Position numbers and translations under genes: made by a program. The notes beneath the pieces were generated by a model that ran no database searches, had not been told where the DNA came from, and saw only the letters and a list, made by a program, of their open reading frames with translations. 64,000 bases of DNA from Candidatus Latescibacterota bacterium (GTDB lineage: Bacteria > Latescibacterota > UBA2968 > GCA-2709665): positions 3,840,001 to 3,904,000 of the forward strand of contig OZ242358.1 in assembly GCA_965208835.1 (NCBI GenBank). Direction: 5' to 3'. Below are positions 26,704-52,782 of the stretch, in pieces (the first letter of the stretch is position 1; each line of letters starts with the position of its first letter).

Positions 26704-26763
26704 TTGACATATCTGCCATCGAAGTGTATTATTTTTCATGCGATAATTTTATATATAAAACAA
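26704..26763 (+). promoter_or_regulatory. sigma70 promoter P2 plus operator copy 2 (heme operon)
   Basis: TTGACA(26704)-17 nt-TATTAT(26727); CATGCGATAATTTTATATATAAAACAA at 26737-26763. Confidence 0.8.
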
Positions 26764-26915
26764 ACGCAGGTTCTACAAAACGATCGACGAATATGCAAAA
26801 CGGTCGCCTTGTATAAAGATCCACATCCAGACCAATGCTGATTCTCAACTGTGGAATCGGCAAACCACGTGGTTTGTACAGTTCCCATTAGCGCGCCGTT
26901 GTGCAGGAAATACCA

Positions 26916-27809
26916 ATGGTCGGACGCAGTCTTATCGTTCTGGTGTGGCTCATCCTCAGCGTGGCCCCGGTCACGCGGGCCGGCAATGTGGACGGCGAAG
27001 GCAGTCGCTCCACTGCCTCGCGCGTCGTATCTGTCGGCGGTTCGCTGACTGAAATCGTCTATGCCCTGGAGGCGACGGACGGATTGGTGGGAACCGATAC
27101 GTCCAGCGGGTACCCGGAAGCGGCTACCCGGCTGCCACAGGTGGGTTATCAGCGGCGGCTCTCCGCCGAGGGAGTGCTGTCACTCAACCCGACGCTGGTG
27201 TTGGCGACCGCCGACGCCGGCCCACCCGCGGCGATCGTGCAGATCAGGTCGGCCGGAGTGCCGGTCATGGTGGTGCCGAACGCACGAACCACCGATGGCG
27301 TCAAAGAGAAGATCCGTACAATCGCCAGGGCGCTGGACCGCGAGGAAAAAGGAGAGGAACTGGCGAGGAATCTCGAAGCGGACCTGCTGCTGGCGCGGGA
27401 GTTTGTCGCCACAGCGGAGGAAAAACCAAGAGTGCTCTTTATATACGCGAGGGGTCAGGGCACGATGATGGTATCGGGATCCGGTACGTCGGCACACACG
27501 ATGATCCAACTTGCGGGGGCGGTAAATGCCGTATCAGGATATGAGAATTACAAGCCGCTGACCGCTGAGGCGTTGGTGGCTGCTTCGCCCGACGTGATTC
27601 TCATGCTTACGTCGGGACTCGAAAGCCTCGGCGGCGTGGACGGCCTTCTCAAAACGCCGGGGCTCGTGCTCACACCGGCCGGACAAAATCGCCGGATCGT
27701 GGCCATGGACGGGCTTTATCTGCTTGGATTCGGCCCGCGTACGGGAAAGGCTGTGCTGGAACTGGCACGGAAATTCCATTCGGAGACAGGTGTTTCCGAG
27801 GATCAATAA
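26916..27809 (+). CDS. hmuT: Heme ABC transporter periplasmic binding protein
   Basis: Signal peptide; VSVGGSLTEIVYAL, VGYQRRLSAEGVLSL (heme Tyr), YKPLTAE, LLGFGPR. Confidence 0.92.
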   Translation: MVGRSLIVLVWLILSVAPVTRAGNVDGEGSRSTASRVVSVGGSLTEIVYALEATDGLVGTDTSSGYPEAATRLPQVGYQRRLSAEGVLSLNPTLVLATADAGPPAAIVQIRSAGVPVMVVPNARTTDGVKEKIRTIARALDREEKGEELARNLEADLLLAREFVATAEEKPRVLFIYARGQGTMMVSGSGTSAHTMIQLAGAVNAVSGYENYKPLTAEALVAASPDVILMLTSGLESLGGVDGLLKTPGLVLTPAGQNRRIVAMDGLYLLGFGPRTGKAVLELARKFHSETGVSEDQ

Positions 27810-27810
27810 A

Positions 27811-28941
27811 GTGAGCGTCACCGACGAGATTTCGTCCCGCCAGATTCCAGAAACAGCCGATGGGGGTGTTGCTGCGGACCGACCGGACTGGCGGAAAAAT
27901 CGCGCAGCCATGGTTCTGTCGGGGTTGGGCGTGCTGCTGGCCGGGATGACGGTGGCATCCGTCGGTACAGGCGCGGTTGCCGCATCTCCGGGGCAGATTC
28001 TGGCCATCTTAGGCGAACGGATCGGCCTGTGGCTGCCCTGGACCTATCAGCCGCAGCAGGAAGCCGTTGTAACAGCAATTCGCCTTCCACGGGTGTTGCT
28101 GAACGTGCTTGTCGGCGCCGGACTATCAGTTTCCGGAGCGGCAATGCAGGGTCTCTTCCGCAATCCGCTTGCGGACCCTGGCCTGGTGGGCGTGTCCAGC
28201 GGTGCGGCTCTGGCGGCGGTCTCAGTAATTGTGCTGGGAGCTACCGTGCTGGAGGGTTTCTCTTCGGCGCTCGGACTGTTTACGCTTCCCCTTGCGGCGT
28301 TCGTCGGCAGCGGCGTAACCACGGTGATCGTTTACAGGCTCTCCAGCGTACAGGGACGTACCGTGGTTGCCACCATGCTGCTGGCAGGTATCGCCGTGAA
28401 CGCGCTGACCGGTTCGGTTACCGGCCTGCTGACCTTCGCGGCGACCGACGAGCAACTTCGAAATATCACCTTCTGGAGCCTGGGTAATATGGGTGGTGCT
28501 ACCTGGACATCGTTGGCCTCCGTGGCGCCCTTTATCCTGATCTCTGTCTGTCTTCTGGTCCGGTACGCAAGGCCTCTGAACGCCTTTCTGCTGGGAGAGG
28601 CCGAAGCGGGGCATCTCGGTGTGCCGGTTCAGCGCATGAAACGCGAGATCGTGGCATTAACCGCTTTGGCCGTTGGTGCGTCGGTCGCAGTCACTGGCAT
28701 TATCGGCTTCGTGGGCCTGGTCGTACCCCACCTGCTTCGCCTCACTGTGGGTCCCGATCACCGCTACGTGATGCCCGGTGCGGCTCTGCTCGGGGCGTCT
28801 CTCCTGATGGGGGCCGATCTCGCCGCACGCACGGTCGTAATGCCTGCCGAACTGCCCATCGGAATTGTGACGGCTATTGTCGGAGCGCCCTTTTTTCTGT
28901 ATCTGCTGCTGCGAAACAAACAGAAGATGCAACTGTTATGA
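27811..28941 (+). CDS. hmuU: Heme ABC transporter permease (FecCD family)
   Basis: IRLPRV, QGLFRNPLADPG, LGEAEAGHLG, IGFVGLVVPH, ELPIG. Confidence 0.92.
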   Translation: MSVTDEISSRQIPETADGGVAADRPDWRKNRAAMVLSGLGVLLAGMTVASVGTGAVAASPGQILAILGERIGLWLPWTYQPQQEAVVTAIRLPRVLLNVLVGAGLSVSGAAMQGLFRNPLADPGLVGVSSGAALAAVSVIVLGATVLEGFSSALGLFTLPLAAFVGSGVTTVIVYRLSSVQGRTVVATMLLAGIAVNALTGSVTGLLTFAATDEQLRNITFWSLGNMGGATWTSLASVAPFILISVCLLVRYARPLNAFLLGEAEAGHLGVPVQRMKREIVALTALAVGASVAVTGIIGFVGLVVPHLLRLTVGPDHRYVMPGAALLGASLLMGADLAARTVVMPAELPIGIVTAIVGAPFFLYLLLRNKQKMQLL

Positions 28942-29801
28942 TCGAAGCCGACGAAGTTTCTGTACATATCGGACGAAAAGCACTGCTGAATCGCGTCAGC
29001 ATCCAGGTACGACCGGGTGAAATCGTCGCCGTCGTGGGTCCCAACGGCTCGGGAAAGACCACGCTGTTCCGGGTGCTGTGCGGCGACCTGTCGCCTTCGA
29101 CCGGCTCGGTCTGGCTGGAGGGATGGTGCCTCGAGGACTGGGCATCGACCGAACAGGCCCGAAAACGCGCGGTGCTCCCGCAGACCGCCACACTCGATTT
29201 CCCGTTTACGGTTCTGGAGGTCGCGGTTATGGGCCGAATGCCTCACCTGGAGGGTTCCGAGGGCACGCGAGACTACGCGATTGCGCGCTCCGGCCTCGAC
29301 ATGGCGGGCGTCGGTGAACTGGAAGACAGGATATACCCCACGCTTTCGGGAGGTGAGCAGCAGCGGGTGCAGTTCGCGCGGGTTCTTACGCAAATCGGAG
29401 AGCAACCCTCGGACGGCCGGCGATATCTTCTGCTCGATGAGCCCACATCCAATCTCGATCTGGCGCACCAGCATCGGATTCTGTCCACTGCCCGCAACTT
29501 CGCCTGTGAGTCGACCGGCGTATTGGCGGTGGTCCACGACCTGAATCTGGCCGCCCAATACGCGGATCGCATCCTTGTTCTGAAGGATGGCGAAGAGCTC
29601 ACCACAGGTGGACCGGCGGAGGTGCTCACGGAGGGAGTCATTGAGCAGGCCTTCGAAGTCGGAGTACAGGTGATTCCGCACCCCGCACTGGACTGCCCGC
29701 TCATCGTTCCGCTTCCCGAGACTTCAGCGAAATCTAGAACCGCCCAAATTGCGGGCAGCGCGATATTCGGTCCTCAGGCAGGGACTTCGTTCGATAACTG
29801 A
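28938..29801 (+). CDS. hmuV: Heme ABC transporter ATP-binding protein
   Basis: GPNGSGKTT, LSGGEQQRVQFARVLTQ, LLLDEPT, HDLNLAAQYAD, HP. Confidence 0.93.
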   Translation: MIEADEVSVHIGRKALLNRVSIQVRPGEIVAVVGPNGSGKTTLFRVLCGDLSPSTGSVWLEGWCLEDWASTEQARKRAVLPQTATLDFPFTVLEVAVMGRMPHLEGSEGTRDYAIARSGLDMAGVGELEDRIYPTLSGGEQQRVQFARVLTQIGEQPSDGRRYLLLDEPTSNLDLAHQHRILSTARNFACESTGVLAVVHDLNLAAQYADRILVLKDGEELTTGGPAEVLTEGVIEQAFEVGVQVIPHPALDCPLIVPLPETSAKSRTAQIAGSAIFGPQAGTSFDN

Positions 29802-29869: not shown

Positions 29870-32281
29870 ATGTCACGCGTCAATTCGTCAGGTACGAAGA
29901 ATCAGGCCGCGCCATCGGAAACGGACGCCAGGCCGGGTGCGTGTCTTGTGACACGCTGTCTACTTAAGGGACTCAGGTATTCGGGATGGTTCGTGTTCCT
30001 GTGCTGCCTGTGCGGTTACGGCGTGGCGAACGACGATACCGGGCACATCGACGGCGTGGTGCAGACAGCAGGCGGCGTGCCCCTGGCCAATGTGAATGTG
30101 ATCGTCGCGAATACTCCGGCGGGAACCGTTTCTTCCGCCACCGGGCGGTTTTCAATGGTCGGCATACCTTCGGGTGAACGTACGGTGGTCGCAAGCCTCG
30201 TCGGCTATCGGAATGCCCGCCGCGAATTAAGCATTGTCGACAACACCGTTTCAAGGATTACAATCACTTTGACCCCGGAAACAACCGCACTCCCCGCGAT
30301 TGTCGTAACCGGAACCAGATCGGCGCAGCGCACTGAAGACACCCCCATCCGGACGCAGGTCGTCACCAGACGTGAAATTGACGACACGGGAGTGGTCGAT
30401 CTGGGAAGTCTGTTGTCCGAACAGACCGGGCTTGCCGTCATTTCCGATCACGGCACCGGCGTTCAGATGCAGGGGTTCGATCCCGATTATACGCTAATAC
30501 TGGTCGACGGCGAACCCATTATCGGACGCACAGCCGGAATCCTCGACCTGGACCGCTTCCTGGTGAGCAATCTCGAACAGGTCGAGATCGTAAAGGGTTC
30601 CACCTCCTCGCTCTACGGCAGCGAAGCTCTGGCGGGTGTGATCAATCTGATTACGCGCCTGCCTGAAAAGCCGTTCTCCGTTTCCATTCGCCCTCGATAC
30701 GGAACCTTTGGCGCCTTGAATTTCACCGGCGAACTGGAATCAAGGCAGCGGGAAGTCGGGATATCTCTCTTTGTGGACAGAAGCCGCAGCAACGGATACG
30801 ATCATACGCCGGAGACAGTCTCGCCGACCGCACCGGAATACGTCACCTATACCGCAAGTCCCAAAGTCGTCTATCAGCCGAACGACCTTGTAACGTTGTC
30901 CCTGACTGCCAGGGCTTTCCGCGAGAACCAGTACAGTCCGGAGGAGATCACGTCGCGCAGCGGAACCGTGCCCATTGACCGGGACGCACGTCTCACAGAC
31001 TGGAATATCAAACCCGGAATCGTCTTCCAATGGACGCCGAGCCTTCGAATAACCGGTAAGCTCTATACGGCAGGATACCACACCAGAAGCGAGCGGACCC
31101 GAAGCGATAACGGCGAAGCGTACGACCTGGCGACCTTCGACCAGGCCTACCACAAGGCGGAGTTACATGCCCGCTCGCTGATCGGGAAGACCAGCATTGT
31201 GACCCTCGGCGCCGGAGCGGTGTGGGAATCCGTAGAGGCCGACCGCATCACCGGCGGGCGCCAAACCTCACGGAACGCCTTCGCCTTTCTCCAGGAAGAG
31301 TGGTTGCCGGCGACATGGCTCGACGTTGTCGTCAGCGCGCGTGTGGATGCGCACAGCGATTATGCGACCCGAGTGAGCCCGAAAGCCGCCCTGCTCGTTA
31401 AGACACTGCCGTGGCTGCATCTGCGCGGGTCCATAGGTAGCGGCTTCAAGGCGCCTACGTTTCAACAGCTGTACCTGGATTTCACGAATCCTTCGGTCGG
31501 ATACTCCGTACTCGGTTCCACGTATGTCCGCGAGGGAATGGCCGCGTTTCAGGACGAAGGTCAGATTGCCGGCGTTCTGCAGAACGCCGAAACCCTGGAG
31601 CAAATTCGCGCGGAAAGCGCCGTCTCGTTCAACACGGGCATTGAAATCGCGCCTGGAAGACGCGCGTCCGCCAGCTTCAACTTCTTTCATAACAACATGA
31701 AGGATCTCATCGAGGCTTCGCCGATTGCGCGAAAGAAGAGCGGCCAGAGCGTATACACGTATTTCAATCTCAACCGCGTCTTCACACGCGGTATGGAAAG
31801 TGAATTCAAGATACGCATTTCCAGGGAGGCCGGGTTTTCGGCGGGCTATCAATACCTGGTTACCGGAGACAGGGACATACTCGACAGACTCCACGAAGGC
31901 AAGGTAGTAACGGTGGATTCGGAGACCAACAAGCTCCGCCGCGTCGAGACCTCCGAATATGGCGGCCTCTTCAATCGCTCGACCCACACTGCCACGCTCC
32001 GCCTGGCCTATCGGAGTGATAAAACCGGCTTCGGCGGCAGCCTGCGCGGGGTATATCGAGGACGATACGGTTATGGGGACCGTAATCTGACGAGCATTCT
32101 GGATGCGCCGGAAGAGTACGCGCCAGGCTACGACCTCTGGCACATTTCATTTTCTCATCAAATAAAGGATGCCGCAACGATTCGACTGGGTGTACGGAAC
32201 ATCTTCGACGAAAAACGGCTGGACTACGTTCCCTCGCTGTCCGGCCGAACGCTGTACGCAGACCTTACGAAGGTCTTCTGA
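29870..32281 (+). CDS. TonB-dependent receptor (HmuR-like) with N-terminal carboxypeptidase-regulatory-like domain
   Basis: IVVTGTR TonB box, LILVDG, VEIVKG..SSLYGSEALAGVINLIT plug, GFKAP, NIFD, terminal Phe; start uncertain. Confidence 0.93.
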   Translation: MSRVNSSGTKNQAAPSETDARPGACLVTRCLLKGLRYSGWFVFLCCLCGYGVANDDTGHIDGVVQTAGGVPLANVNVIVANTPAGTVSSATGRFSMVGIPSGERTVVASLVGYRNARRELSIVDNTVSRITITLTPETTALPAIVVTGTRSAQRTEDTPIRTQVVTRREIDDTGVVDLGSLLSEQTGLAVISDHGTGVQMQGFDPDYTLILVDGEPIIGRTAGILDLDRFLVSNLEQVEIVKGSTSSLYGSEALAGVINLITRLPEKPFSVSIRPRYGTFGALNFTGELESRQREVGISLFVDRSRSNGYDHTPETVSPTAPEYVTYTASPKVVYQPNDLVTLSLTARAFRENQYSPEEITSRSGTVPIDRDARLTDWNIKPGIVFQWTPSLRITGKLYTAGYHTRSERTRSDNGEAYDLATFDQAYHKAELHARSLIGKTSIVTLGAGAVWESVEADRITGGRQTSRNAFAFLQEEWLPATWLDVVVSARVDAHSDYATRVSPKAALLVKTLPWLHLRGSIGSGFKAPTFQQLYLDFTNPSVGYSVLGSTYVREGMAAFQDEGQIAGVLQNAETLEQIRAESAVSFNTGIEIAPGRRASASFNFFHNNMKDLIEASPIARKKSGQSVYTYFNLNRVFTRGMESEFKIRISREAGFSAGYQYLVTGDRDILDRLHEGKVVTVDSETNKLRRVETSEYGGLFNRSTHTATLRLAYRSDKTGFGGSLRGVYRGRYGYGDRNLTSILDAPEEYAPGYDLWHISFSHQIKDAATIRLGVRNIFDEKRLDYVPSLSGRTLYADLTKVF

Positions 32282-32355: not shown

Positions 32356-33597
32356 ATGAAAGGAATCTTCTCATGTAGTATTTTTCTGTTGTTCGTGCTG
32401 CCTGTGAACGTCACGGGCGAAAATGAAAAGTCGGAACCGAGAATAAAGCTCACGGGATACGGCGAGCTCATCTATTCGCATTTCGACTACGGCCCGGATC
32501 AGAAGAGCAGCCCGACGGGTTCACCGCCTGACAGCCGCGCGATTATCGACGTTACGCGACTGGCGCTCGAGCTGGAAACCCATCTGCTGCACGGCGTCGA
32601 ATTTGAAACTGAAGTGGAAATCGAACACGGCGGTACCGGGGGTGCCCTCGAAATTGAATACGAGGAATTCGGTGAGTACGAATCCGAAGTGGAAAAAGGC
32701 GGTGAAGTCATCCTCGAAGAACTCTACATTAAACGCGAGTTCAGCGACGCCTTCAACGTCCGTCTGGGCCACTTTTACGTTGCCGTGGGACTCACCACGG
32801 AGCTTTACCACCCCACGAGTTTTTTCGGAACGCGACGTCCTGAGTCGGAAACCTCGGTCATTCCCGCAATATGGCACGAAACCGGCATTGAAGTCAGCGG
32901 CCACGGCGATCGTCTGAGCTACCAGATTCAACTCGTCAACGGCCTGGACGCTACGGGTTTCAGTTCACAAAGCTGGATTGTTGGCGGCCACCAGACGCGC
33001 TTCGAGGAAGTTCAAGCATCGAACATGGCCCTCGCGGGCCGGCTGGACTACCGTCTCGCGGATGGTCTCACCCTCGGAATTTCGGGCTATCGCGGCAATA
33101 GCGCCGACAACCGGCCCAAGCCCGATATGAAGGGCATCAGTGCCACGATATCCATATTCGATGTCCACGCCGTACTGCGATACAAGCGTCTGCGTGCGCA
33201 GGGCATGTATCTCTACGGACAGCTGCAGAACGCTGACATCGTAAGCCAGCGCAACCGATCGCTTTCCAATAATCTCGATGTGTTGCGCACGCCGGTCGCC
33301 AGTGGCGCCTATGCGTCTTATGCCGAAGCCGGCGTTGATATTCTGCCCACTCTCACGTTGCGGCCGGAAGATCAACTCTACGTGTTCCTGCGATTTGACC
33401 GCTACGACACAATGGCGAGTGTCCCGGAGAACTTTTTTGACAATCCACGATTCGAACGAACAGTATTCACCTTCGGTCTAAACTACGTTATGGACAACGC
33501 TGTCGTTCTCAAAGGCGACTACGCCATGCGTCGTCTGGGCCATTCAAAATTCAACGGAGAAAATACCGCCAGCTTCGGCGTTGGTTTTCAGTTCTAA
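32356..33597 (+). CDS. Outer-membrane beta-barrel/porin of iron-uptake loci
   Basis: Signal peptide; LTGYGE, EVEIEHGG, acidic EIEYEEFGEYESEVEKGGE loop, WHETG, terminal GFQF. Confidence 0.8.
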   Translation: MKGIFSCSIFLLFVLPVNVTGENEKSEPRIKLTGYGELIYSHFDYGPDQKSSPTGSPPDSRAIIDVTRLALELETHLLHGVEFETEVEIEHGGTGGALEIEYEEFGEYESEVEKGGEVILEELYIKREFSDAFNVRLGHFYVAVGLTTELYHPTSFFGTRRPESETSVIPAIWHETGIEVSGHGDRLSYQIQLVNGLDATGFSSQSWIVGGHQTRFEEVQASNMALAGRLDYRLADGLTLGISGYRGNSADNRPKPDMKGISATISIFDVHAVLRYKRLRAQGMYLYGQLQNADIVSQRNRSLSNNLDVLRTPVASGAYASYAEAGVDILPTLTLRPEDQLYVFLRFDRYDTMASVPENFFDNPRFERTVFTFGLNYVMDNAVVLKGDYAMRRLGHSKFNGENTASFGVGFQF

Positions 33598-33617: not shown

Positions 33618-34694
33618 ATGAAATTTACGAGGATTTTACTCAGCTTCATGCTCGCCTTTTCGCTCGCCGCCTGCAGCGACAAGGATGAAAACCCGGTTGC
33701 ACCTGAACCGGAACCGGATCCCGGATTCGACTTTTCATCTATTTTGACCGATTTTGCGGATAAGACGGTTATCCCGATCTATAAGGATCTTGCCGACAAG
33801 ACGTCCGACCTCCTCGTCGCAGTCAACAATCTCCGGACCAATCCATCGCCCGCGACGTTGTCAACCGCCCGTGCGGCGTGGGTGGCCTCGCGCCAGCCCT
33901 GGGAGAGAAGCGAAGCGTTTCTGTTCGGCCCTGTCGACTTCAAGGGTTACGATCCGGCACTGGATTCCTGGCCCGTAAACCGCGCGGACCTGGAAGCCGT
34001 ACTCTCGAGCGGCGATGCCTTAACCAAAACGTCCGTCAATAACCTCGAAAACACGCTCAAGGGATTTCATACGGTTGAATTCCTGCTCTATGACGACGGC
34101 GGAAGCAAGGCCGTCAGCGATTTCACGACTCGCCAGTTCGATTATCTGATAGCGGCGACTGAACTGCTCGACGATGCAGCCAACGCGATGTACACCGACT
34201 GGAGCGCATCGGGCGGCAACTTCCGCGACCAGGTTGTCAATGCAGGCGGGGGCAGCAACACCTACACCACGCAGAAAGCAGCCGTCCAGGAAATGATCAA
34301 TGGCATGGTTGGCATCGCCGACGAAGTCGGAAACGGTAAAATTGCCGACCCCTTCAACGAACAGGACACACGGCTTGTCGAATCGCAATTCAGCTTCAAT
34401 TCTCTCCTTGACTTCCAGAACAATATTCGTGGTATATGGCACGTGTACACCGGCGGATACAATGTCCAGGCAGTGGGCCTCGACTATTTCGTCAGGAGCA
34501 GGAACGCGTCTCTCGACCAGCGCCTGAAGGATGAAATCGAGACGGCCATCGAGGAGATCGGGAAGATCTCCTTCCCGTTCCGCGATGCTCTGGCTACCGA
34601 TGCAGCGCAGATCACGGCAGCCCAGCAGGCCATCGCCACGGTGCAGGCGACCCTCGAAGGCGATGTCTTGCGCCTGGTGAACGCAGAGCCATAA
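33618..34694 (+). CDS. Imelysin/IrpA-like (peptidase M75) lipoprotein
   Basis: Lipobox LAAC; WERSEAFLFGP, LDSWP, GFHTVE (GxHxxE), ESQFSFNS. Confidence 0.9.
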   Translation: MKFTRILLSFMLAFSLAACSDKDENPVAPEPEPDPGFDFSSILTDFADKTVIPIYKDLADKTSDLLVAVNNLRTNPSPATLSTARAAWVASRQPWERSEAFLFGPVDFKGYDPALDSWPVNRADLEAVLSSGDALTKTSVNNLENTLKGFHTVEFLLYDDGGSKAVSDFTTRQFDYLIAATELLDDAANAMYTDWSASGGNFRDQVVNAGGGSNTYTTQKAAVQEMINGMVGIADEVGNGKIADPFNEQDTRLVESQFSFNSLLDFQNNIRGIWHVYTGGYNVQAVGLDYFVRSRNASLDQRLKDEIETAIEEIGKISFPFRDALATDAAQITAAQQAIATVQATLEGDVLRLVNAEP

Positions 34695-34790: not shown

Positions 34791-36191
34791 ATGAGACCCG
34801 TATACGTGACAAAAACCGGCAAGACTCCACTGGCTATCGCCGCCTTGCTGCTCATTTCGGCGTGTGGCAGTGAAGAGACGATTTCTCCAGTTCCCGACGA
34901 AACCAGACCGCTGTCTGGCGGGCAGGCGACCGTTTTCGACGCCTCCAGTCAAGCTTTCGAAATGCCCATTCCGACGCTCTCGGCCAGCGAACTTGAGAAG
35001 TTTCTCGCTGGTGATGCCACCTTCGAACAGGTTTTCGTCACGCCGCCCGCGGAGGTGAATCCCGGGGCGGGTCCCGTATTCAGCCACACCTCCTGCGTGG
35101 GATGTCATTTGCGCGACGGACGCGGGCGCGGCTCATTCGGCACCGAGCCGCCCTTTGTCGGCTCCATGCTCTTGCGCATCAGTCTTCCCGGCTTCTCTCC
35201 GCACGGCGGTCCGGCGCCTGTACCGGGTTTCGGGATACAGCTCGGCGACCGCGCGAACTATGGCGTTAAGCCCGAAGCACGCGTCCAGGTCAGTTCTTTC
35301 GAAACGGTGGAAAGACTCGCGGACGGCGAGGAAGTCTACCTGAAACACCCCGTCTACTACATAGTAGACACGTATCAACCTTTGCCAGCCGGCGTGCTCC
35401 TGTCGGCGCGCATGGCGCCGCCCGTATTCGGTCGCGGTCTTCTCGAAGCGATTTCCGAGTCTGACATTCTCGCCCTGTCGGATCCCGCGGACGCCGACGG
35501 GGACGGCATTTCGGGCCGTCCCAACTACGTGCATAATTTCCGGACGGGCCAGACGGAACTCGGACGTTTCGGCCGGAAAGCCAACAATCCCGATATATTG
35601 CAGCAGGTCGCGAGCGCGTACAAAGAGGACATGGGCGTTACCAGTCCATACTTTCCCATTGAATCGGTATGGGGGCAGACTCAATACGACGGCCGCGACG
35701 ACGATCCGGAGATTACACAGGATATTCTGGACATCACGACGTTCTATATCCAGACGCTCGCCGTACCCGCACGGCGCAATTGGGACGATCCCCAGGTCAT
35801 TCGCGGTGAGATACTCTTTGAATCGACGGGTTGCGCCGGCTGCCATACGACCACGTTCCGGACGGACAGCCACCCGATCGCGGCATTATCCGGCCAGATC
35901 ATCCATCCCTATACCGATCTGCTGCTGCACGACATGGGCGACGCCCTGGCCGACGATCGACCGGACTTCGAAGCCACGGGGCGCGAATGGAAGACGCCGG
36001 CGCTCTGGGGCCTTGGGCTCACGGAAACCGTCAATGGCATTCCGCCGGGATTCCTGCACGACGGCAGGGCGTTGACCCTGCTGGAAGCGATTATGTTTCA
36101 CGGCGGCGAAGCCGAACGGTCGCGCGAAGCCGTGCGCCGGCTTTCCACGGAAAATCGGGAAGCCCTGCTCGCGTTCTTGCGATCGTTGTAG
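34791..36191 (+). CDS. Di-heme oxidoreductase (DHOR/DUF1111) lipoprotein
   Basis: Lipobox ISAC; CVGCH and CAGCH; GRGLLEAI, DGDGISGR, PYTDLLLHDMG, EWKTPALWG, LHDGRA. Confidence 0.92.
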   Translation: MRPVYVTKTGKTPLAIAALLLISACGSEETISPVPDETRPLSGGQATVFDASSQAFEMPIPTLSASELEKFLAGDATFEQVFVTPPAEVNPGAGPVFSHTSCVGCHLRDGRGRGSFGTEPPFVGSMLLRISLPGFSPHGGPAPVPGFGIQLGDRANYGVKPEARVQVSSFETVERLADGEEVYLKHPVYYIVDTYQPLPAGVLLSARMAPPVFGRGLLEAISESDILALSDPADADGDGISGRPNYVHNFRTGQTELGRFGRKANNPDILQQVASAYKEDMGVTSPYFPIESVWGQTQYDGRDDDPEITQDILDITTFYIQTLAVPARRNWDDPQVIRGEILFESTGCAGCHTTTFRTDSHPIAALSGQIIHPYTDLLLHDMGDALADDRPDFEATGREWKTPALWGLGLTETVNGIPPGFLHDGRALTLLEAIMFHGGEAERSREAVRRLSTENREALLAFLRSL

Positions 36192-36315: not shown

Positions 36316-37590
36316 GTGAATTTGCGACGCTTGTTTTACGCCTGCATTGTCGTCCTTGCAACCGTGCCGCTTCTCGCCCAGATGGCTGGCGACGCCGATT
36401 TCGACGGCAACGGCGAAGTCGATTTTCAGGACTTCCTATTGTTCGCCCGCGCTTTCGGGTCCACGGATCCTCAATTCGATCTGGACGGGAACGGCGAGGT
36501 CGACTTTCAGGACTTCCTATTGTTCGCCCGCGCTTTCGGCGGTCCGGCAGAGCCCGACATGGCGCCCATTACGACGTTGACGGAGGTCGTGGTACGCGAC
36601 CTTCCGTCCGACCCCGACAGGCTGGACGTTTTCACCTATTACAGCCTGAGGGACAGCGCCATCGTCGCCCGGACCGATTCCAATTCCACGAAGTGGGACC
36701 TCGCATTCAAGTCGACAACGGTCCTGATCAACGGCGGCAGCAGCGGACCGGGCGATGGCGGCGCGATCGTGCTGACGGAAACGGACTACGATACCCTCTC
36801 AATGGCGCCCGATTCTGAATATGCGGTTGACATGGAGGGACAACCGGCGATTTCTGGGCAATGGTATACCTATACCGGTCCGCCCGACCATCACATCCTG
36901 ATCAACCCGGGCGTAGTGCTGGTTGTCCGCACGGCCGACGGGAGATACGCCAAGCTCAAGTTTACGAGTTATTATAAAGGTGGGGAGGCAGTTCCTTCGT
37001 CACCCGAAGCGAGGGGGCGCTTTCTGAATTTCACCTACACGTTCCAGCCGGATGACTCCCGTTCCCTTGTCGGACCATCCATGGAAATCACAACGCTTAC
37101 GGAAGTCATTGCCCGCGACGTCGCCGCAGACACGGGTAACGTGGGCGCCTTCACCTTCTACAGTCTCCGCGACAGCGGTCTTGTCGCCAGTGCGGACTCC
37201 AATTCCACGAAGTGGGACCTGGCTTTCAAGTCCACGACCGTACTCACGAACAGCGGCAGCAGCGGGCCCGGAGAGGGCGGCGCGATCGTGCTGACCGCGA
37301 CGGATTACGATACACTGTCGATGGCGCCCGATTCGGAATACGCCGTCGATCAGGAGGGACAACCGGCGATTTCTCGGCAATGGTATACCTATACCGGGCC
37401 GCCGAGCCACCAGATCCTGATGAACCCCGGCATCGTGATCGTGGTTCGTACAGCCGACGGGCGATACGCCAAGCTCAAATTCACGAGCTATTACGAGGGA
37501 GGGGAGGCGATTCCGGCTGGGGACGCAAGATCCCGCTTCTATCATTTCACATATACGTTTCAACCCGACGGCTCGCGCTCGTTTCGTTGA
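36316..37590 (+). CDS. Secreted protein: N-terminal dockerin-like domain plus two tandem HmuY-family heme-binding domains
   Basis: Signal peptide; 2x D[FL]DGNGEVDFQDFLLFARAFG; 2x YSLRD..WDLAF..NxGSSGPG..WYTY..H..VRTADGRYAKLKFTSYY. Confidence 0.88.
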   Translation: MNLRRLFYACIVVLATVPLLAQMAGDADFDGNGEVDFQDFLLFARAFGSTDPQFDLDGNGEVDFQDFLLFARAFGGPAEPDMAPITTLTEVVVRDLPSDPDRLDVFTYYSLRDSAIVARTDSNSTKWDLAFKSTTVLINGGSSGPGDGGAIVLTETDYDTLSMAPDSEYAVDMEGQPAISGQWYTYTGPPDHHILINPGVVLVVRTADGRYAKLKFTSYYKGGEAVPSSPEARGRFLNFTYTFQPDDSRSLVGPSMEITTLTEVIARDVAADTGNVGAFTFYSLRDSGLVASADSNSTKWDLAFKSTTVLTNSGSSGPGEGGAIVLTATDYDTLSMAPDSEYAVDQEGQPAISRQWYTYTGPPSHQILMNPGIVIVVRTADGRYAKLKFTSYYEGGEAIPAGDARSRFYHFTYTFQPDGSRSFR

Positions 37591-37616: not shown

Positions 37617-37946
37617 ATGGTCTCCGTTGCGAATCGGATCTACATCCACCCGGACTATGCCGCGAATTTCGAGGAGCGGTTTCGCAACCGCGCGCATCTG
37701 GTGGACGGTATGCCCGGGTTCATCTCCAACAAGGTACTGAGACCCATGAAGAGTGGGGATCCCTACGTGGTGCTGACCCTATGGGAGTCCCGCGAGGATT
37801 TCAAGAACTGGGTGAATTCGGAGGAGTTCCAGAAGGGCCACTCCAGATCGGGAACGCTGCCGAAAGAGGCGTTCACGGAACCCAGCCACCTTGAAATCCA
37901 CGAGGTGTTTCTGGACACGGAACGGGAGCACGCGGACGCGGTTTGA
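37617..37946 (+). CDS. IsdG/HmoA-like heme-degrading monooxygenase (ABM family)
   Basis: GGGAGG RBS; VANRI, FEERF, MPGF, WESREDFKNWVNSEEFQKGH (N-W-H triad). Confidence 0.88.
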   Translation: MVSVANRIYIHPDYAANFEERFRNRAHLVDGMPGFISNKVLRPMKSGDPYVVLTLWESREDFKNWVNSEEFQKGHSRSGTLPKEAFTEPSHLEIHEVFLDTEREHADAV

Positions 37947-38000: not shown

Positions 38001-38039
38001 AAGGGGCTACGAGCCATTACTCGTAACCCCTTGTTTTTT
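38001..38039. terminator. Bidirectional terminator between heme operon and tRNA
   Basis: AAGGGGCTACGAG-ccatta-CTCGTAACCCCTT followed by GTTTTTT. Confidence 0.7.
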
Positions 38040-38040
38040 A

Positions 38041-38117
38041 TGGTCGGGGAGGCGGGATTCGAACCCGCGACCCCCTGCTCCCAAAGCAGGTGCTCTGCCG
38101 GACTGAGCCACTCCCCG
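38041..38117 (-). tRNA. tRNA-Pro (TGG)
   Basis: Reverse complement CGGGGAGTGGCTCAG...CCTGC-TTTGGGA-GCAGG...GGTTCGAATCC...CCCCGACCA, 77 nt with encoded CCA. Confidence 0.97.
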
Positions 38118-38416
38118 TACCAACATCCTGGATATCACAATTCCGTTCGGAATATCTACAATTCACAGATATTGGGCAAGCAAAAAAGCCGAAACATGCA
38201 CGCGTACCGCGTAGACCTGAGACAAGCCTCGAATCATGCCCGGCTGTTTATGACACGTATACCCGTCAACACAATCGATCCCGGTTCTCAACATCCACAG
38301 CGCCCGCCATTCCGAGGTCCATGGATTTCACTTGCCCGGACTGACGGCGCAAGGTAATTTGGCGTGCGGTTGTAACCGAGTCGTCTTGCAAACCGATTTC
38401 GAGAGAATCTTTCCCT

Positions 38417-39550
38417 ATGCCCGACAAACCGGTACTCATTATCGACGGCCATCTGGATATGGCCTTTAATGCGCTCTTCTACCGGCGCGACCTCACACAG
38501 CCGGTACATGTACTGCGCGAACGTGAAGACGTCGTTCGCGCCGACCTGTCGACCCATAAGGACTCGCTGGAACGACGTGCTGGCCTGGAGGACAAGCGCT
38601 ACACGGTGACCGTAACCCTGCCAGAGATGCGAGAGGGCCACGTCGGTATCATGCTTTCAACGATCATGGCACGCGTTCAGGCCCCCTCCATCGACTCCCA
38701 CAACTCCGTTCGCGCCCAGTCGGTCGCATACGCAAGAGGCCAGAGCCACCTCCACTACTACAACGCCCTCGCCCGCCGGGGTGAAATCACGTTCATCAGA
38801 AACACCGGCGACCTGGATGAATGTGTCGCGTCGTGGGAGCATCCAACGGATACCACGCCGATCGGCCTGATTCTCACCGCCGAAAGCGCCGACCCCATCC
38901 TGGGGCCCGACCAGGTGGGAGATTGGTGGGACGCCGGACTGCGCTCGGTATCCCTTACCCACTTCGGGGCCAATACCTACGGCCACGGGACCGGCACGGT
39001 CGGAGGGCTCTATCCGCCCGCCTATCCCCTGATGGACGCCTTTAAAGACGTGGGCATGGTCATCGACCTCACGCACGCGTCGGACCTCACGTTCTGGCAG
39101 ATCATGGACTATTGGGACGGACCGGTCCACGCAAGCCACTGCAACTGCCGGGCGCTCCTTCGCGGCCAGAGGCACCTGAGCGACGAGATGATTCAGGCCA
39201 TCGTCGAACGCGGCGGCGTCATCGGAGTGGTCTTCGCAGAACAGATGCTCAGCCCCTCCTGGGACTGGGACGATCCTTCAACGCATTACACCACCGCCAC
39301 GCGGCCGATGAAGGCCGTTGTCGAACACGTCGACCACATCTGCCAGCTCACAGGCAACAGCCGTCACGTTGCCATCGGAACGGATCTGGACGGCGGGTTC
39401 GGACTGGAGCTCTCACCCACGGACTACAACACGATCACCGACCTCCAGCGGTTTCCCGGCATCCTGGAAGCGCAGGGATACGATTCTGAAGACATCGACA
39501 ACATCTGTCATGGAAACCTGATCCGATTCTTCAAGGAGGCGTGGTCCTGA
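38417..39550 (+). CDS. Membrane dipeptidase (M19)
   Basis: DGHLD, ESAD, DLTH, ASHCN, HVDH, IGTDLDGG, GN..RF. Confidence 0.9.
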   Translation: MPDKPVLIIDGHLDMAFNALFYRRDLTQPVHVLREREDVVRADLSTHKDSLERRAGLEDKRYTVTVTLPEMREGHVGIMLSTIMARVQAPSIDSHNSVRAQSVAYARGQSHLHYYNALARRGEITFIRNTGDLDECVASWEHPTDTTPIGLILTAESADPILGPDQVGDWWDAGLRSVSLTHFGANTYGHGTGTVGGLYPPAYPLMDAFKDVGMVIDLTHASDLTFWQIMDYWDGPVHASHCNCRALLRGQRHLSDEMIQAIVERGGVIGVVFAEQMLSPSWDWDDPSTHYTTATRPMKAVVEHVDHICQLTGNSRHVAIGTDLDGGFGLELSPTDYNTITDLQRFPGILEAQGYDSEDIDNICHGNLIRFFKEAWS

Positions 39551-39614
39551 CGACCGCCGTTTCGTTGCCTGCCCACGCGCCAGACCGCCGCGTCAATCAA
39601 GCCAGGGGTTTCGA

Positions 39615-40697
39615 ATGCCCGACCGTCCGTACCTGATCGCAGACAGCCACCTTGACCTGGGGTTCAGCGCTATTCAGGTCAACCGGGACCTCACGCAGCC
39701 GGCCGCAACCGTCCGCGTCCACGACGCCGAACCCGTGATGCGCAGCTTCGGTAGCTGTACCGTGACCTTTCCGGAACTCCGCCGGGGCAACGTTGGCATC
39801 ATATTCGGCACGATGATGTCCCGAACCGACCCGAATGACCGCTGGACCCGCACGGGCATGTATTGCCAGGACCAGTGCCACGGCGTAGGCAGAGGCCACC
39901 TGGCCTATTATCAGGCGATGGAACGCGAAGGCGTGGTTCGATTCATCCGCAATTCGCGGGACCTGGACGAAACGGTGGCCGCCTGGGAAGACCCAGCTCC
40001 GGACACGCCTATCGGCGTGGTGGTGGCCATGGAAAGCGCCGACCCCATCCTGGACCCGTCCCAGGTTCCCGAATGGTACGATCTGGGGCTCCGCATCGTG
40101 AGCATTTCACACTACGGCGTCAGTTCTTATTGCCACGGCACCGGCACCGAAGGCGGCCTCCTCGAACGCGGCAAACCGCTGCTCGACGCATTGAAGGAAG
40201 CGGGGATTATCGTCGACCTCACCCACACCACGGACCGGGCCTTCTGGGAAATCCTGGACGTCTACGACGGCCCGGTGGCCGCCTCCCACCACAATTGCCG
40301 GGCACTCACCCCCGGACAGCGCCAGCTAACCGACGAGATGATCGCCGCCATCGTCGAACGGGGCGGCGTGATCGGCGCCGCATTCGATGCCTGGATGCTG
40401 GATCCCGACTGGAATCGTGAGATTCCCTGCTGGGCCCAGAGTACAAAGGCCACCCTCGAAACCGTTGCCGATCACATCGACCACGTCTGCCAGCTTGCGG
40501 GAAACGCACGGCACGCCGGCATCGGAACGGACCTGGACGGCGGTTTCGGACAGGAACAGGCCCCGCGCGACCTGAACACCATCGCCGACCTGCAGAACCT
40601 GGTCGGCATCCTCCAGCGCCGTGGCTACGGCGAACCCGACGTTCGCAACATCCTCTCCGGCAATTGGGTCCGTTTCCTCAAGGAAGTGTGGGAGTAG
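39615..40697 (+). CDS. Membrane dipeptidase (M19), tandem paralog
   Basis: DSHLD, MESAD, DLTH, ASHHN, HIDH, IGTDLDGG. Confidence 0.9.
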   Translation: MPDRPYLIADSHLDLGFSAIQVNRDLTQPAATVRVHDAEPVMRSFGSCTVTFPELRRGNVGIIFGTMMSRTDPNDRWTRTGMYCQDQCHGVGRGHLAYYQAMEREGVVRFIRNSRDLDETVAAWEDPAPDTPIGVVVAMESADPILDPSQVPEWYDLGLRIVSISHYGVSSYCHGTGTEGGLLERGKPLLDALKEAGIIVDLTHTTDRAFWEILDVYDGPVAASHHNCRALTPGQRQLTDEMIAAIVERGGVIGAAFDAWMLDPDWNREIPCWAQSTKATLETVADHIDHVCQLAGNARHAGIGTDLDGGFGQEQAPRDLNTIADLQNLVGILQRRGYGEPDVRNILSGNWVRFLKEVWE

Positions 40698-41525: not shown

Positions 41526-41558
41526 CCCGGGATTTCCCGTCTATCTACGCGCGTGTGT

Positions 41559-43028
41559 ATGCCTCCCAGACCTAACCTGCTTCTCATCACGACCGACCAG
41601 CAGCGCGGCGACTGCCTCGGGTGCGACGGCCATCCGGTTCTCGAAACCCCCTACCTGGATGAACTGGCGGAGGGCGGCGCGCGTTTCAACCACGCCTATA
41701 CCTCTGTCCCTTCCTGCACCCCCGCCCGCGCGGCAATCCTGACCGGAATGGACCAGTGGAACCATGGCCGTCTCACCATGACGGGCGCCGACTCGCTCGA
41801 ATACCCGGCAACGCTTCCCGGAGAACTCGCCAGTGCCGGCTACCACACCCAGGCCGTGGGCAAGATGCACTTCCACCCCCAGCGCAGACTCCACGGGTTT
41901 CATCATATGGTTCTGGACGAGAGCGGACGACGATTGGGCAATTTCATCAGTGACTACCACGTATTCTTCGAGAAACACAAGGAGGGCGAATACGGCTACC
42001 GCGACCACAGTGTCGACTGGAATTCATGGATGGCCCGTCCATCGCATCTGCCGGAACACCTTCACCCCACGCACTGGACAGCATCGGAGGGCATCAGGTT
42101 TCTCGAGAATCGGGACCCCACCAGACCCTTCTTTCTCTGGTTGTCGTTTGCCCGCCCCCATTCACCTTATGACGCGCCGCAGACCTACTACGATTTGTAT
42201 ATAGACAATCCCGAGGTGCCCAAGGCGGCCGTGGGTGCATGGTCCGCCCGGTACGACCGTCGAATCGCGGATGTGAACGCCCCGCGCACCCGCCGCACCG
42301 ACGCGGAGACCCATCGCGCACGCGCGGCATATTACGGCAACATCACGTTCATCGACCATCAGATCGGTCGTGTCCTGCACGAACTGCGCCGTCGCGAACC
42401 CGCGGCGTCGGCCAACACCCTCATTCTGTTCACTTCGGACCACGGCGACATGATGGGCGATCACCACCACTGGCGGAAGACATACGCGTATGAAGGCTCA
42501 GCCCGAATCCCCTTCATCGTCAAGTACCCGGATGTCTGGGATATACCCCCAAACCGGACGCTGACGGAGCCTGTCGAGCTGCGAGACGTCATGCCCACGT
42601 TTCTCGACGCCGCGGGCGTAGCCGTCCCCGAATCCGTAGACGGCCTGAGCCTGCTGGATCTGTCAAGGGGCCGGACCGACGGCTGGCGAAATTTCATACA
42701 GGGTGAACATACCACCTGTTACGATAAGGAACACGGCATGCAGTACGTAACCGACGGACGGGAAAAGTTCATCTGGTTTCACCACACGGGCGCCGAACAG
42801 TTCTTCGACCTGGAAGCCGATCCTCTGGAGTGCAACGACCTCGCGACGGATCCCGCCTGTCAATCGCGCATCGACGTCTGGCGGGAACGCCTGGCTGGAA
42901 TCAACGAACAACGTGGCGACCCCCGCGGCCGGAACGGCAGACTCGTGCCCCAGCCCGACAGCGCGCTGTCTCTTTCACCCAACTATGAGAAATGGAAACA
43001 GCGTGCGAAAGGGCTGAGAGACGCCTGA
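41559..43028 (+). CDS. Arylsulfatase (FGly type)
   Basis: PNLLLITTDQQR, CTPARAAILTG, GKMH, PHSPYD, TSDHGD. Confidence 0.93.
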   Translation: MPPRPNLLLITTDQQRGDCLGCDGHPVLETPYLDELAEGGARFNHAYTSVPSCTPARAAILTGMDQWNHGRLTMTGADSLEYPATLPGELASAGYHTQAVGKMHFHPQRRLHGFHHMVLDESGRRLGNFISDYHVFFEKHKEGEYGYRDHSVDWNSWMARPSHLPEHLHPTHWTASEGIRFLENRDPTRPFFLWLSFARPHSPYDAPQTYYDLYIDNPEVPKAAVGAWSARYDRRIADVNAPRTRRTDAETHRARAAYYGNITFIDHQIGRVLHELRRREPAASANTLILFTSDHGDMMGDHHHWRKTYAYEGSARIPFIVKYPDVWDIPPNRTLTEPVELRDVMPTFLDAAGVAVPESVDGLSLLDLSRGRTDGWRNFIQGEHTTCYDKEHGMQYVTDGREKFIWFHHTGAEQFFDLEADPLECNDLATDPACQSRIDVWRERLAGINEQRGDPRGRNGRLVPQPDSALSLSPNYEKWKQRAKGLRDA

Positions 43029-51318: not shown

Positions 51319-52782
51319 CTAGGCGAACCAGTACGAATAAAGATCCGCCTGCCTGAGGTAGAACTTCAGCCTGATTTCCTTACCCTTCAGCGGATCCAGA
51401 TCCGTCCGCTCAATCCACGTCAGCCGATGGGAGATCGCGTCTCCGTCCAGCGTGGCGCACCGGACCGCGGCGTATTCCGGCGCGTGGTATCCATCCTGTT
51501 CGATAACGGAGACCGCGAGTTCACCGCCTCTGGCATCCGCGTTCACATGGAGTGAGCCTCCCGGACATATCATCGGCTTCGTCAACACCCACCCCGCCTG
51601 TTCCCCCGCAGCCAGACTCACGAATCCGTCCCTGCGAAGTCGCGCAAGCCCCGGAAGTTTCGTGTAGGACAAGCCGTGGCCATGCACGGCCATTCCGAAG
51701 TAAAACCAGAGTTCGTCCCCGACGACCACCGGCGAGTTGCAGGGCCAGATGACTCCGGAGTCCAGGCCTCCCGGAGTGGTATCCAGAAACGGCACGCGAC
51801 CCTCTGGCCGATTCCAGTGAACCCCGTCACGGCTCGTTACCAGCTCAATGTAGCACCGGCCCAGCATCGCGGAATGTGCCGGCCAGTCCGGCAGCCGGTA
51901 GGGGAACCGCTTGGGGCGCTCTTCGGCAAACCCTTCGTGCACGCATAGCAGCCCGACGTACATCCTTTCGTAGAAGAACACGCCGATCGTCTGGAACTCC
52001 GTACCGGCCGGATCGTCGACGTTCGGCGCGAGTACCGTTTCGAGTTCGGTCCACCCGCTCAGATCCTCGCTCTCGCTTCTGGCGATCAGACGCATCGCGA
52101 GGCCTTCCGGATCGATCACTTCGTCAGGACGAGCGACCTGCGGGCGGAAATAGGCTACGTAGCGTCCGATGTTCTCGTCCCACCCCGCCATGCAGTTCAG
52201 CCCGTCGGAATGCCCGATACGGCTTGGTACGCGTGCCTTTTGCACGCCGGACCACGACACTCCGTCGGACGAAAAGCTGATACTGTGGGGGTAATACAGC
52301 ATCTTGTATCTGCGGGCGTCGTCCGATTCGTGTTCGTCGATAACGACGCTCGGCAGGGATCCCGGCGGCTCGAATAAGACGTTGTTTTCCGTACTCCCGT
52401 TGATGTCGACACGATTCAATGCCGGAAGCCGCCAGTGAATGCCGTTCTGGGACTCCGCGTAGGCCACCACAGGCGTCCCGCCCCCGTATCCGAAGTCCCT
52501 GATTCCCGGGGGTTTCGTCTGGTAATACATCTGAAACACGCCGGACGGGCCGCGAACCACCGACGTGGGCGTCAGGGCAGGGTTGAGCTTCGGGACGCCG
52601 CCCTCACTCGGTACCCGGTCCTCCTCGTACCGCACGCCCTCCCGCGCGTCGTGAAACTGATTGCCGACGAGCAGAGGATTCCCGACGTATTTGACCGGCG
52701 AGTGGTATTGCCGCGAGACACGAAAAGTCTCCGCGACCCCCTCGTCATCCAGAAACAACTGACGCTTGTCAATTGCCGACAT
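51319..52782 (-). CDS. GH32/GH43-like five-bladed beta-propeller protein
   Basis: QLFLDD, YAESQNGIHW, SSDGVSW, SRDGVHW, LRRDGFVSL, LHVNAD, LYSY. Confidence 0.72.
   Translation of the reverse strand: MSAIDKRQLFLDDEGVAETFRVSRQYHSPVKYVGNPLLVGNQFHDAREGVRYEEDRVPSEGGVPKLNPALTPTSVVRGPSGVFQMYYQTKPPGIRDFGYGGGTPVVAYAESQNGIHWRLPALNRVDINGSTENNVLFEPPGSLPSVVIDEHESDDARRYKMLYYPHSISFSSDGVSWSGVQKARVPSRIGHSDGLNCMAGWDENIGRYVAYFRPQVARPDEVIDPEGLAMRLIARSESEDLSGWTELETVLAPNVDDPAGTEFQTIGVFFYERMYVGLLCVHEGFAEERPKRFPYRLPDWPAHSAMLGRCYIELVTSRDGVHWNRPEGRVPFLDTTPGGLDSGVIWPCNSPVVVGDELWFYFGMAVHGHGLSYTKLPGLARLRRDGFVSLAAGEQAGWVLTKPMICPGGSLHVNADARGGELAVSVIEQDGYHAPEYAAVRCATLDGDAISHRLTWIERTDLDPLKGKEIRLKFYLRQADLYSYWFA

Follow-up and report, generated by a model that had tools for sequence, protein, structure and literature searches.

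Work on the HmuY family has so far dealt almost solely with lipoproteins from Bacteroidota of the mouth and gut. We analyse here a 64-kb stretch of the genome of a Candidatus Latescibacterota bacterium (the window; coordinates below are positions within it), in which the gene at 36316-37590 on the forward strand (+) encodes a 424-amino-acid (aa) secreted HmuY-family protein that combines an N-terminal dockerin-like module with two HmuY domains. Like Porphyromonas gingivalis HmuY (PDB 3H8T, 6EWM) and the other Bacteroidota members of PF14064, this protein belongs to the Pfam HmuY family, has an all-beta fold and is paired with a TonB-dependent receptor. It differs from P. gingivalis HmuY in having two tandem domains behind a dockerin-like module, no lipobox, shorter pocket loops, no alignable counterparts of His134 and His166, and a Latescibacterota host. 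Its best sequence match is Bacteroides fragilis BfrB (HmuY-Bf-2, 8B6A), with E-values (E) of 9e-15 for the protein and 1.4e-18 for the profile, and BfrB is also its best fold match (2e-13, 30% identity). BfrB is itself a single-domain lipoprotein, and it shares with the 424-aa protein the shortened pocket loops and the lack of an iron-coordinating pair (available part of PMC12106395).

For the module, the closest described systems are the 'planctosome' of Planctomycetes, in which dockerin-tagged secreted proteins are proposed to sit on cohesin proteins outside cellulose degradation (PMC6461901), and a Cloacimonadota scaffoldin with a type-IX tail (PMC8542988). In the available text of both papers, these in-silico models have peptidases and glycosidases as cargo and include no iron- or heme-capture protein. 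A literature search pairing HmuY with dockerin returned no paper, and a search for dockerin together with hemophore, heme or iron acquisition gave no dockerin paper among the matches listed. For the phylum itself, dockerin, cohesin and cellulosome go unmentioned in Youssef et al. 2015, and the available part of PMC7081726 gives one sentence, citing Farag 2017, to cellulosome-affiliated enzymes in Latescibacteria. The architecture of the 424-aa protein and its exchange of anchors are solid and unreported, while scaffold docking for heme capture is plausible though unproven.

Our preferred reading, to which we give an even chance, is that the protein is a Sec-exported heme or porphyrin binder that serves the neighbouring receptor and would stay at the envelope through a calcium-dependent dockerin interaction, in place of lipidation or type-IX attachment. 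In this mechanism, Sec would export an accessory protein that carries no lipid and works with a TonB-dependent system for taking up heme or porphyrin, and the two tandem HmuY beta-sandwich domains of this protein would bind a tetrapyrrole, most likely heme. The ligand would then be handed to the co-transcribed receptor, an ATP-binding cassette (ABC) transporter would import it, and ring opening would fall to an HmuQ/IsdG-like enzyme. Through its N-terminal calcium-loop module of 50 residues, the protein would be bound non-covalently to a partner in the envelope, of which a cohesin-type domain is the likeliest candidate. The analysis shows what the domains are, how they fold, which genes make up the cluster and in what conserved order, the exchange of anchors and the recurrence of the module on many proteins; that a ligand is bound and which one, that calcium is bound, that the protein lies at the surface and what it docks on are inferences. 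The rival explanations weighed below overlap in part.

Anchor exchange in a clade of HmuY proteins

The open reading frame (ORF) at 36316-37590 is uninterrupted and begins with GTG; a GGAGG Shine-Dalgarno sequence lies 5 nt upstream, and the start position is the same in homologues. The AlphaFold2 (AF2) model of the whole protein, built on an alignment of 63 homologues, has a mean predicted local distance difference test score (pLDDT) of 87.9. The N-terminus, MNLRRLFYACIVVLATVPLLA followed by QMAG, shows a basic tip and then a hydrophobic core, is modelled as a helix at residues 2-20, and reads as a signal-peptidase-I-type signal peptide without a lipobox (residues 1-21; 36316-36378, +; LLA-Q cleavage read by eye). 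The sole N-terminal Cys, residue 10, stands too near the start to belong to a lipobox and is not kept among orthologues, and the lipobox Cys that forms the lipoprotein signal of the HmuY family is thus not found in this protein. A first-pass annotation of the window, made from the letters alone, had read this region as a signal peptide without lipobox ahead of two loop-helix repeats at an 81-bp period, and our analysis bears this out.

Comparison across the family indicates what has taken the place of the anchor. The best 150 matches of a HMMER search against 1.84 billion representatives were sorted into anchor classes, of which the largest by far, a lipobox-like Cys, was set by our own rule and holds 116 of the 150. 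A type-IX C-terminal domain (Por_Secre_tail) is present in 12 of the 150, one of them below its cut-off, while 16 have no recognised anchor or are fragments. Four of the 150 are HmuY proteins with two loops, all of the Latescibacterota type (two full-length proteins and two N-terminal fragments), and a further two match through their dockerin repeats only. Among these best 150 representatives, the dockerin module on HmuY proteins is limited to this clade. Because relatives carry a lipobox or a type-IX tail, and the module fills the same slot in this clade only, we conclude that the lipid or type-IX anchor has been exchanged here for a dockerin-type module, as the first-pass annotation had supposed for the lipid anchor. 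The missing lipobox is a real change, since the neighbouring imelysin and di-haem oxidoreductase (DHOR) genes keep their lipoboxes and the organism therefore makes lipoproteins. A family known from Bacteroidota thus turns up in a phylum without cultured members, where its anchor has given way to a module that many secreted proteins of the phylum carry.

Two other parts of the first-pass annotation needed correction. It had placed the protein in a Bacteroidota frame, which is wrong for the host because the closest loci are from Latescibacterota: the 11 closest of the 13 related loci (67-92% identity) belong to Candidatus Latescibacterota, one of them being listed as Gemmatimonadota, and the two distant loci are from Sphingobacteriia. 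It had also taken HmuY proteins of Bacteroidota to be typically single-domain and had described this protein as a bivalent hemophore. Bivalency is in fact ordinary, since 52 of 148 representatives hold more than one core motif (two in 36 of 148, three in 16 of 148).

Within the clade the architecture is stable. Twelve full-length homologues, at 62-93% identity, retain the module repeats and both HmuY domains, and this conservation puts repeats and domains far above chance. In 26 close homologues (P0002-P0028 minus P0017) the signal peptide is followed directly by two loops at about residues 28 and 55; the exceptions are P0007, with a single loop, and P0017, with an N-terminal extension. Homologues come in a two-domain form (about 424 aa) and a one-domain form (about 250 aa). 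In a tree of the domains, whose midpoint rooting serves for drawing only and in which several forks are poorly supported, the two domains of P0013 pair together (support 90/90). In the clade of the window's protein, the first domains form one group (support 100/99) and the second domains group with a single-domain protein. The tandem duplication of HmuY domains therefore seems to have arisen more than once.

The N-terminal module and its possible partner

Dockerins are built from a tandem pair of segments, in each of which a calcium loop of 12 residues leads into one helix (the F-hand), with Asp or Asn at loop positions 1, 3, 5, 9 and 12. The DNA of the module in the 424-aa protein is made of two direct 63-nt repeats, 36396-36458 and 36477-36539, which are 92% identical at a spacing of 81 nt and each encode D-x-D-G-N-G-E-V-D-F-Q-D-F-L-L-F-A-R-A-F-G. 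Tandem Repeats Finder gave no report at this 81-nt repeat, of which fewer than two full copies are present, and another repeat search detected it. Repeat 1 (residues 28-48; 36397-36459, +) opens with the 12-residue calcium-type loop DFDGNGEVDFQD and runs into a helix at residues 37-46 of the AF2 model. Repeat 2 (residues 55-75; 36478-36540, +) has its helix at residues 64-73. The loops read D-F-D-G-N-G-E-V-D-F-Q-D and D-L-D-G-N-G-E-V-D-F-Q-D, with Asp at position 12 in both. In the whole-protein and the module-only models alike, each repeat is a loop and then one helix with no entering helix: no helix precedes loop 1, and a 7-residue linker alone precedes loop 2. This is the two-segment loop plus F-hand architecture of dockerins, which the first-pass annotation had already recognised in the duplicated unit.

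The canonical EF-hand, by comparison, is a helix-loop-helix in which each loop is preceded by an entering helix and has Glu at its position 12. We considered an EF-hand pair and rejected it, as entering helices are missing, loop position 12 is Asp, and the structural alignment with EF-hand proteins is poor (troponin and calmodulin-type proteins reach template modelling (TM) scores of 0.2-0.34 at root-mean-square deviations (rmsd) above 9 Å). For the module-only model (pLDDT 90.4 from a 28-row alignment), PDB ranks 1-18 are all dockerins, with TM scores of 0.54-0.77. The Pseudobacteroides cellulosolvens dockerin 2Y3N_B, which has the same two-fold calcium loop plus helix, matches at E 4.7e-4 with a TM score of 0.77 and an rmsd of 2.8 Å. 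The same chain is rank 13 for the whole-protein model (Foldseek against PDB) and, HmuY-family matches aside, the best PDB sequence match of a 19-homologue profile, covering both repeats at E 1.2e-6. The non-cellulosomal NagH dockerin of Clostridium perfringens (2OZN_B) superimposes with a TM score of 0.72 and an rmsd of 1.7 Å.

The module also has features of its own. Its linker between the repeats is about 6 residues shorter than that of 2Y3N_B, with a 27-residue period, and it differs from known dockerins in its N-terminal position right after the signal peptide, in a Phe-rich DFxDFxxFAxxFG signature, in a diderm host and in a cargo that is a nutrient-binding protein instead of an enzyme. 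Across 19 aligned homologues, 19 module residues are invariant, exposed helix Phe residues among them: D28, F29, G33, V35, F37, D39, F40, F43 and F47 in repeat 1, and D55, L56, D57, G60, V62, F64, D66, F67, F70 and F74 in repeat 2. Because of the loop-helix models, the dockerin matches in PDB and the profile match to 2y3n_B, we treat the module as a dockerin fold of a divergent subtype, marked by this signature and by the shorter linker.

The family profiles weigh against that assignment. The module stays under the cut-offs of Pfam Dockerin_1 (PF00404; 19.0 vs 22.9 bits) and NCBIfam dockerin_GC (NF041540; 25.8 vs 29 bits), and the only cut-off it passes is that of EF-hand_1 (28.1 vs 25.4 bits), while it is below those of EF-hand_7 and EF-hand_6. 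Thus, of the profile matches foreseen in the first-pass annotation, those to HmuY (109 bits) and to EF-hand_1 came out and those to the two dockerin families did not.

The module is not specific to the HmuY protein and is a general tag on dozens of unrelated secreted proteins. Three module-bearing proteins are encoded in the window. A two-repeat module (53095-53283 on the reverse strand (-); Dockerin_1 20.2 bits vs 22.9) forms the C-terminus of an M10 protease/beta-propeller protein, and a single loop plus helix of the same kind (4229-4264, +) lies at the C-terminus of an unknown protein. In other matches the module directly follows the signal peptide, as it does in heparinase-like, FGE-sulfatase-like and propeller proteins, or ends proteins of 743-2120 aa of varied kinds (61 matches).

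Several of these proteins deserve description in their own right. The M10 protein of the window (ORF 53092-55647, -) is secreted, 851 aa long and combines an M10 matrixin domain with a YncE/lactonase-type beta-propeller, and its C-terminal module has a period of 33 residues; M10-propeller-module proteins recur in other genomes (P0137, P0143, P0148, P0150, P0178). The unknown protein (ORF 3269-4306, +; 345 aa) has no Pfam family, an N-terminal hydrophobic segment and Gly-rich G..G.L.V.NA.G.VVA.MG repeats. P0201, of 2148 aa, has module matches in 15 stretches and 16 tandem Dockerin_1 stretches (322.9 bits), which makes it in effect a poly-dockerin and speaks for the dockerin identity of the module, and its N-terminus matches a phage baseplate-wedge family. 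The proteins P0125-P0132, of about 915 aa and rich in immunoglobulin-like domains, bear a loop of this kind next to the signal peptide and end in a complete two-repeat module; they may be adaptors that have dockerins at both ends.

Cohesins and this type of module belong together in some proteins. Pfam Cohesin is above its cut-off in 6 of the 61 long module-bearing proteins (30.2-71.8 vs 24.1 bits), and a custom cohesin hidden Markov model (HMM) detected three further ones. The six proteins with both elements in one polypeptide are P0136, P0140, P0162, P0165, P0172 and P0175, the two elements being adjacent in P0136 and P0140. A type-IX sorting domain follows the cohesin and module in three of the six (P0162, P0165 and P0172), an arrangement that may be compared with the Cloacimonadota scaffoldin and its type-IX tail (available part of PMC8542988). 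In P0136, the cohesin spans residues 1061-1169, and immediately behind it comes a short-linker module with 67% identity to that of the HmuY protein in the window. Proteins of the P0136 type suggest self-assembling or surface-anchored scaffolds. This co-occurrence of cohesins with the module in other proteins is the reason why we favour a cohesin-type partner for the HmuY protein.

The genomic neighbourhood, however, offers no such partner. Our searches for it cover the window and the 13 related loci. No cohesin was found among the 54 ORFs of the window (Pfam, with 12 ORFs rescanned at E up to 5), and the custom cohesin HMM, which recovered 9 proteins as its positive control, found none among 2548 six-frame segments of the window and the 13 loci (best E 2.9). 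Likewise, neither Pfam nor the custom HMM showed a scaffoldin in the 64-kb window. The cohesin partner sought by the first-pass annotation was thus not found in these loci, and what stands is the co-occurrence in 6 of 61 proteins elsewhere. A word-based search with the cohesin region of P0136 matched the query alone, and no cohesin is therefore tied to a Latescibacterota chromosome. The ORF at 51319-52782, which adjoins the dockerin-bearing protease, was considered as a cohesin and rejected, as it lacks both a signal peptide and any Pfam hit. When the window's module was co-folded with the P0136 cohesin, the score was 0.05 (mark 0.32), which counts neither for nor against binding.

These negatives feed an alternative in which there is no docking on a cohesin scaffold at all, and the module is a calcium-dependent stabiliser, a sorting tag or a binder of some other envelope component; the partner could then be the N-terminal domain of the receptor, the BBP2 barrel encoded in the cluster or a polysaccharide, or the protein could be a free hemophore. 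The missing cohesin in the window and 13 loci, the sub-threshold scores in both dockerin HMMs with EF-hand_1 passed, and the spread of the module over very diverse proteins, some of them possibly periplasmic (FGE-sulfatase-like proteins, cytochrome-D1-like propellers), all fit this view. Peer et al. are also said to have reported in 2009 that many genomes have dockerin-like modules without cohesins. Against it, fold and profile both group the module with cohesin-binding dockerins, its 19 invariant residues include exposed helix Phe residues, it fills the exact slot of a lipid or type-IX anchor, and cohesins do occur with this module type in the six long proteins. On this evidence, we hold the alternative to be a real but rather doubtful prospect.

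Should the module dock on a cohesin, as our preferred reading has it, the reach of cohesin-dockerin assembly would no longer end at polymer degradation but would take in iron or heme acquisition, and lipid, type-IX and dockerin anchors would be interchangeable in evolution. A broader and somewhat speculative extension, which we think possible yet on the doubtful side, is that Latescibacterota and their neighbours run a general cohesin-dockerin display network on the diderm surface, into which nutrient-capture proteins and degradative enzymes are plugged. In that case the HmuY protein would be the first dockerin-tethered heme or porphyrin binder, and the dockerin would be a third interchangeable anchor within one family, beside lipidation and type-IX attachment.

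The HmuY domains and their ligand

Behind the module, a second DNA duplication (36568-36867 vs 37087-37386; 77% identity at 519 nt spacing) underlies two HmuY domains whose protein sequences agree at 129 of 167 residues (77% identity, E 5e-89). Domain 1 (about residues 85-252; 36568-37071, +) carries the motif WYTYTGPPDH, contains the Pfam stretch 105-224, is strand-rich in the model and matches 8b6a and 3h8t in Foldseek. Domain 2 (about residues 258-424; 37087-37587, +) carries WYTYTGPPSH and aligns with 8b6a over residues 270-422 (phmmer). Family membership is clear, with Pfam HmuY (PF14064) matching in two stretches at E 3.2e-31 and 109 bits against a cut-off of 27. The all-beta fold is seen in Foldseek as well: PDB ranks 1-11 of the whole-protein model are all HmuY-family structures, at target-normalised TM scores of 0.45-0.71, led by BfrB and followed by P. 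gingivalis HmuY (3h8t, 5e-10). The two highly similar HmuY-like domains named in the first-pass annotation are therefore well founded.

What the domains bind is a harder question. In HmuY-family pockets, heme iron is held by an axial pair of residues, His-His, His-Met or Met-Met (definitions from the available text of PMC12106395), and such a pair was not found here, on sequence alignment only. Several observations accordingly weigh against heme as the ligand in our preferred reading. In phmmer and profile alignments, His166 of HmuY falls in a gap between T187 and G188, and the stretch expected to hold His134 is about 30 residues shorter. The porphyrin-contacting Tyr89 of BfrB aligns with the nearly invariant Thr134, and its Met144 sits in a segment missing from the 424-aa protein (phmmer alignment). 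BfrB prefers protoporphyrin IX over heme and does not coordinate iron, and BfrC binds neither heme nor protoporphyrin IX (PMC12106395, part available).

A second alternative builds on these points and holds that the HmuY domains carry no heme, and bind metal-free porphyrin, another tetrapyrrole such as a corrinoid, or nothing at all, in which case they would be structural. The missing axial ligands and the behaviour of BfrB, the best match in sequence and fold, and of BfrC speak for it (PMC12106395, in the part available), as do the receptor, whose score for the B12 receptor family equals that for the heme family at 132 bits, and the permease, whose best NCBIfam matches are BtuC. The neighbourhood points the other way: the ATPase of the cluster passes the cut-off of a heme ABC transporter equivalog, an HmuQ/IsdG-like enzyme is conserved beside the gene, and no cobalamin riboswitch was found in the window. 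So do the domains themselves, in which H192 (H365 in domain 2), 4-5 residues downstream of the His166 position, is kept in 51 of 63 subfamily members, and Tyr184, 186, 219 and 220 are invariant or nearly so across the same 63. We consider this alternative unlikely.

Returning to the preferred reading, the HmuY domains likely bind a porphyrin: the known ligand pair is missing and BfrB binds in its own mode, yet a His and several Tyr residues are conserved. Heme would be the most likely ligand, in view of the setting of the gene. The subfamily has the signature WYxY...PxH but lacks the known ligand pair, which suggests that it binds porphyrins in a way that has yet to be studied.

The gene cluster and its surroundings

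The first-pass annotation had proposed a role in heme and iron capture, and the cluster offers a matching setting with a heme ABC transporter ATPase, a receptor and an HmuQ/IsdG-like neighbour. The TonB-dependent receptor (29870-32281, +), identified by the Pfam Plug, barrel and CarbopepD_reg_2 domains, has an N-terminal CarboxypepD_reg-like domain. In all 13 related loci a receptor lies upstream of the HmuY gene, directly adjacent in 10 of 13 and three genes upstream in the other three as well as in the window, and the pairing with a TonB-dependent receptor known from the family thus recurs here. Directly downstream of the HmuY gene lies an ABM-fold protein of 109 aa (37617-37946, +; Pfam ABM 74 bits), a candidate HmuQ/IsdG-like heme-degrading enzyme whose top NCBIfam match is HmuQ (57.8 bits, under the cut-off of 130). 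All 11 of the 11 loci of the Latescibacterota type share the order receptor, HmuY, ABM, with the ABM gene always directly downstream of HmuY.

The transporter genes stand upstream of the receptor. A periplasmic binding protein (Peripla_BP_2; 26901-27809, +; Pfam 139 bits; start codon uncertain), whose NCBIfam matches to BtuF and IsdE are below cut-offs, is followed by a FecCD-type ABC permease (27724-28941, +; Pfam 307 bits) and by the heme ABC transporter ATPase (28938-29801, +; NCBIfam NF010068, 314.5 vs a cut-off of 261 bits). Together, this context supports a role of the cluster in heme or tetrapyrrole uptake. On the other side of the balance, the best NCBIfam matches of the receptor are heme/hemoglobin and B12 receptor families, all below cut-off and with the heme and B12 scores level as given above, the permease leans towards BtuC, and no FRAP or NPNL box is found in the receptor.

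The location of the protein is a further point on which the evidence divides. In a diderm, a type-I signal peptide alone leads to the periplasm only, and we identified no route of surface export, which counts against a surface-held protein. A third explanation accordingly keeps the protein in the periplasm, where it would collect ligand at the receptor and bring it to the ABC binding protein while its module docks on the N-terminal extension of the receptor or something similar; the CarboxypepD_reg-like beta-sandwich at the receptor N-terminus would offer such a site. This explanation has to reckon with relatives that are lipoproteins or type-IX substrates, the latter surface-exposed, with a cluster that already encodes a dedicated periplasmic binding protein, and with the presence of the same module on M10 protease and heparinase-like proteins that are likely extracellular. 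We regard it as quite improbable, and keep to an envelope-tethered accessory protein of the receptor as the preferred reading, in which a surface location would be expected.

Between receptor and HmuY gene, the window carries an inserted cassette of three genes. It begins with a BBP2 (OmpL-like) beta-barrel (32356-33597, +; Pfam 26.6 vs 26.2 bits), continues with an imelysin (Peptidase_M75) lipoprotein with the lipobox LAAC (33618-34694, +; Pfam 224.6 bits) and ends with the DHOR lipoprotein with the lipobox ISAC (34791-36191, +; Pfam 345.5 bits). The cassette occupies this position only in the window, L003, L004 and L007. It is mobile within the cluster: in most other loci it stands several kb upstream, and the retrieved parts of L001 and L002 do not contain it.

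Ahead of the cluster, a promoter-like site on the forward strand (26704-26732; TTGACA-17-TATTAT, 11 of 12 positions, a consensus match only) is followed by a very AT-rich stretch with GATAAT, the two together spanning 26704-26790 (+) in a genome of 60% GC. This AT-rich GATAAT stretch may be an operator. A search of the window for an Escherichia coli-type Fur box gave 0 matches at up to 3 mismatches. At the other end, the cluster closes with a tRNA-Pro gene (TGG; 38041-38117, -; tRNA search), and we reject the 108-aa ORF at 38031-38357 (+) as spurious because this tRNA lies across it on the opposite strand.

Beyond the cluster lie two tandem M19 dipeptidase paralogues (38417-40697, +), which across loci share about 50% identity. 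The window also encodes two sulfatases with SGSH_C domains, at 18603-20102 and at 41553-43028 (+). L001-L003 keep this order of genes downstream of the heme cluster.

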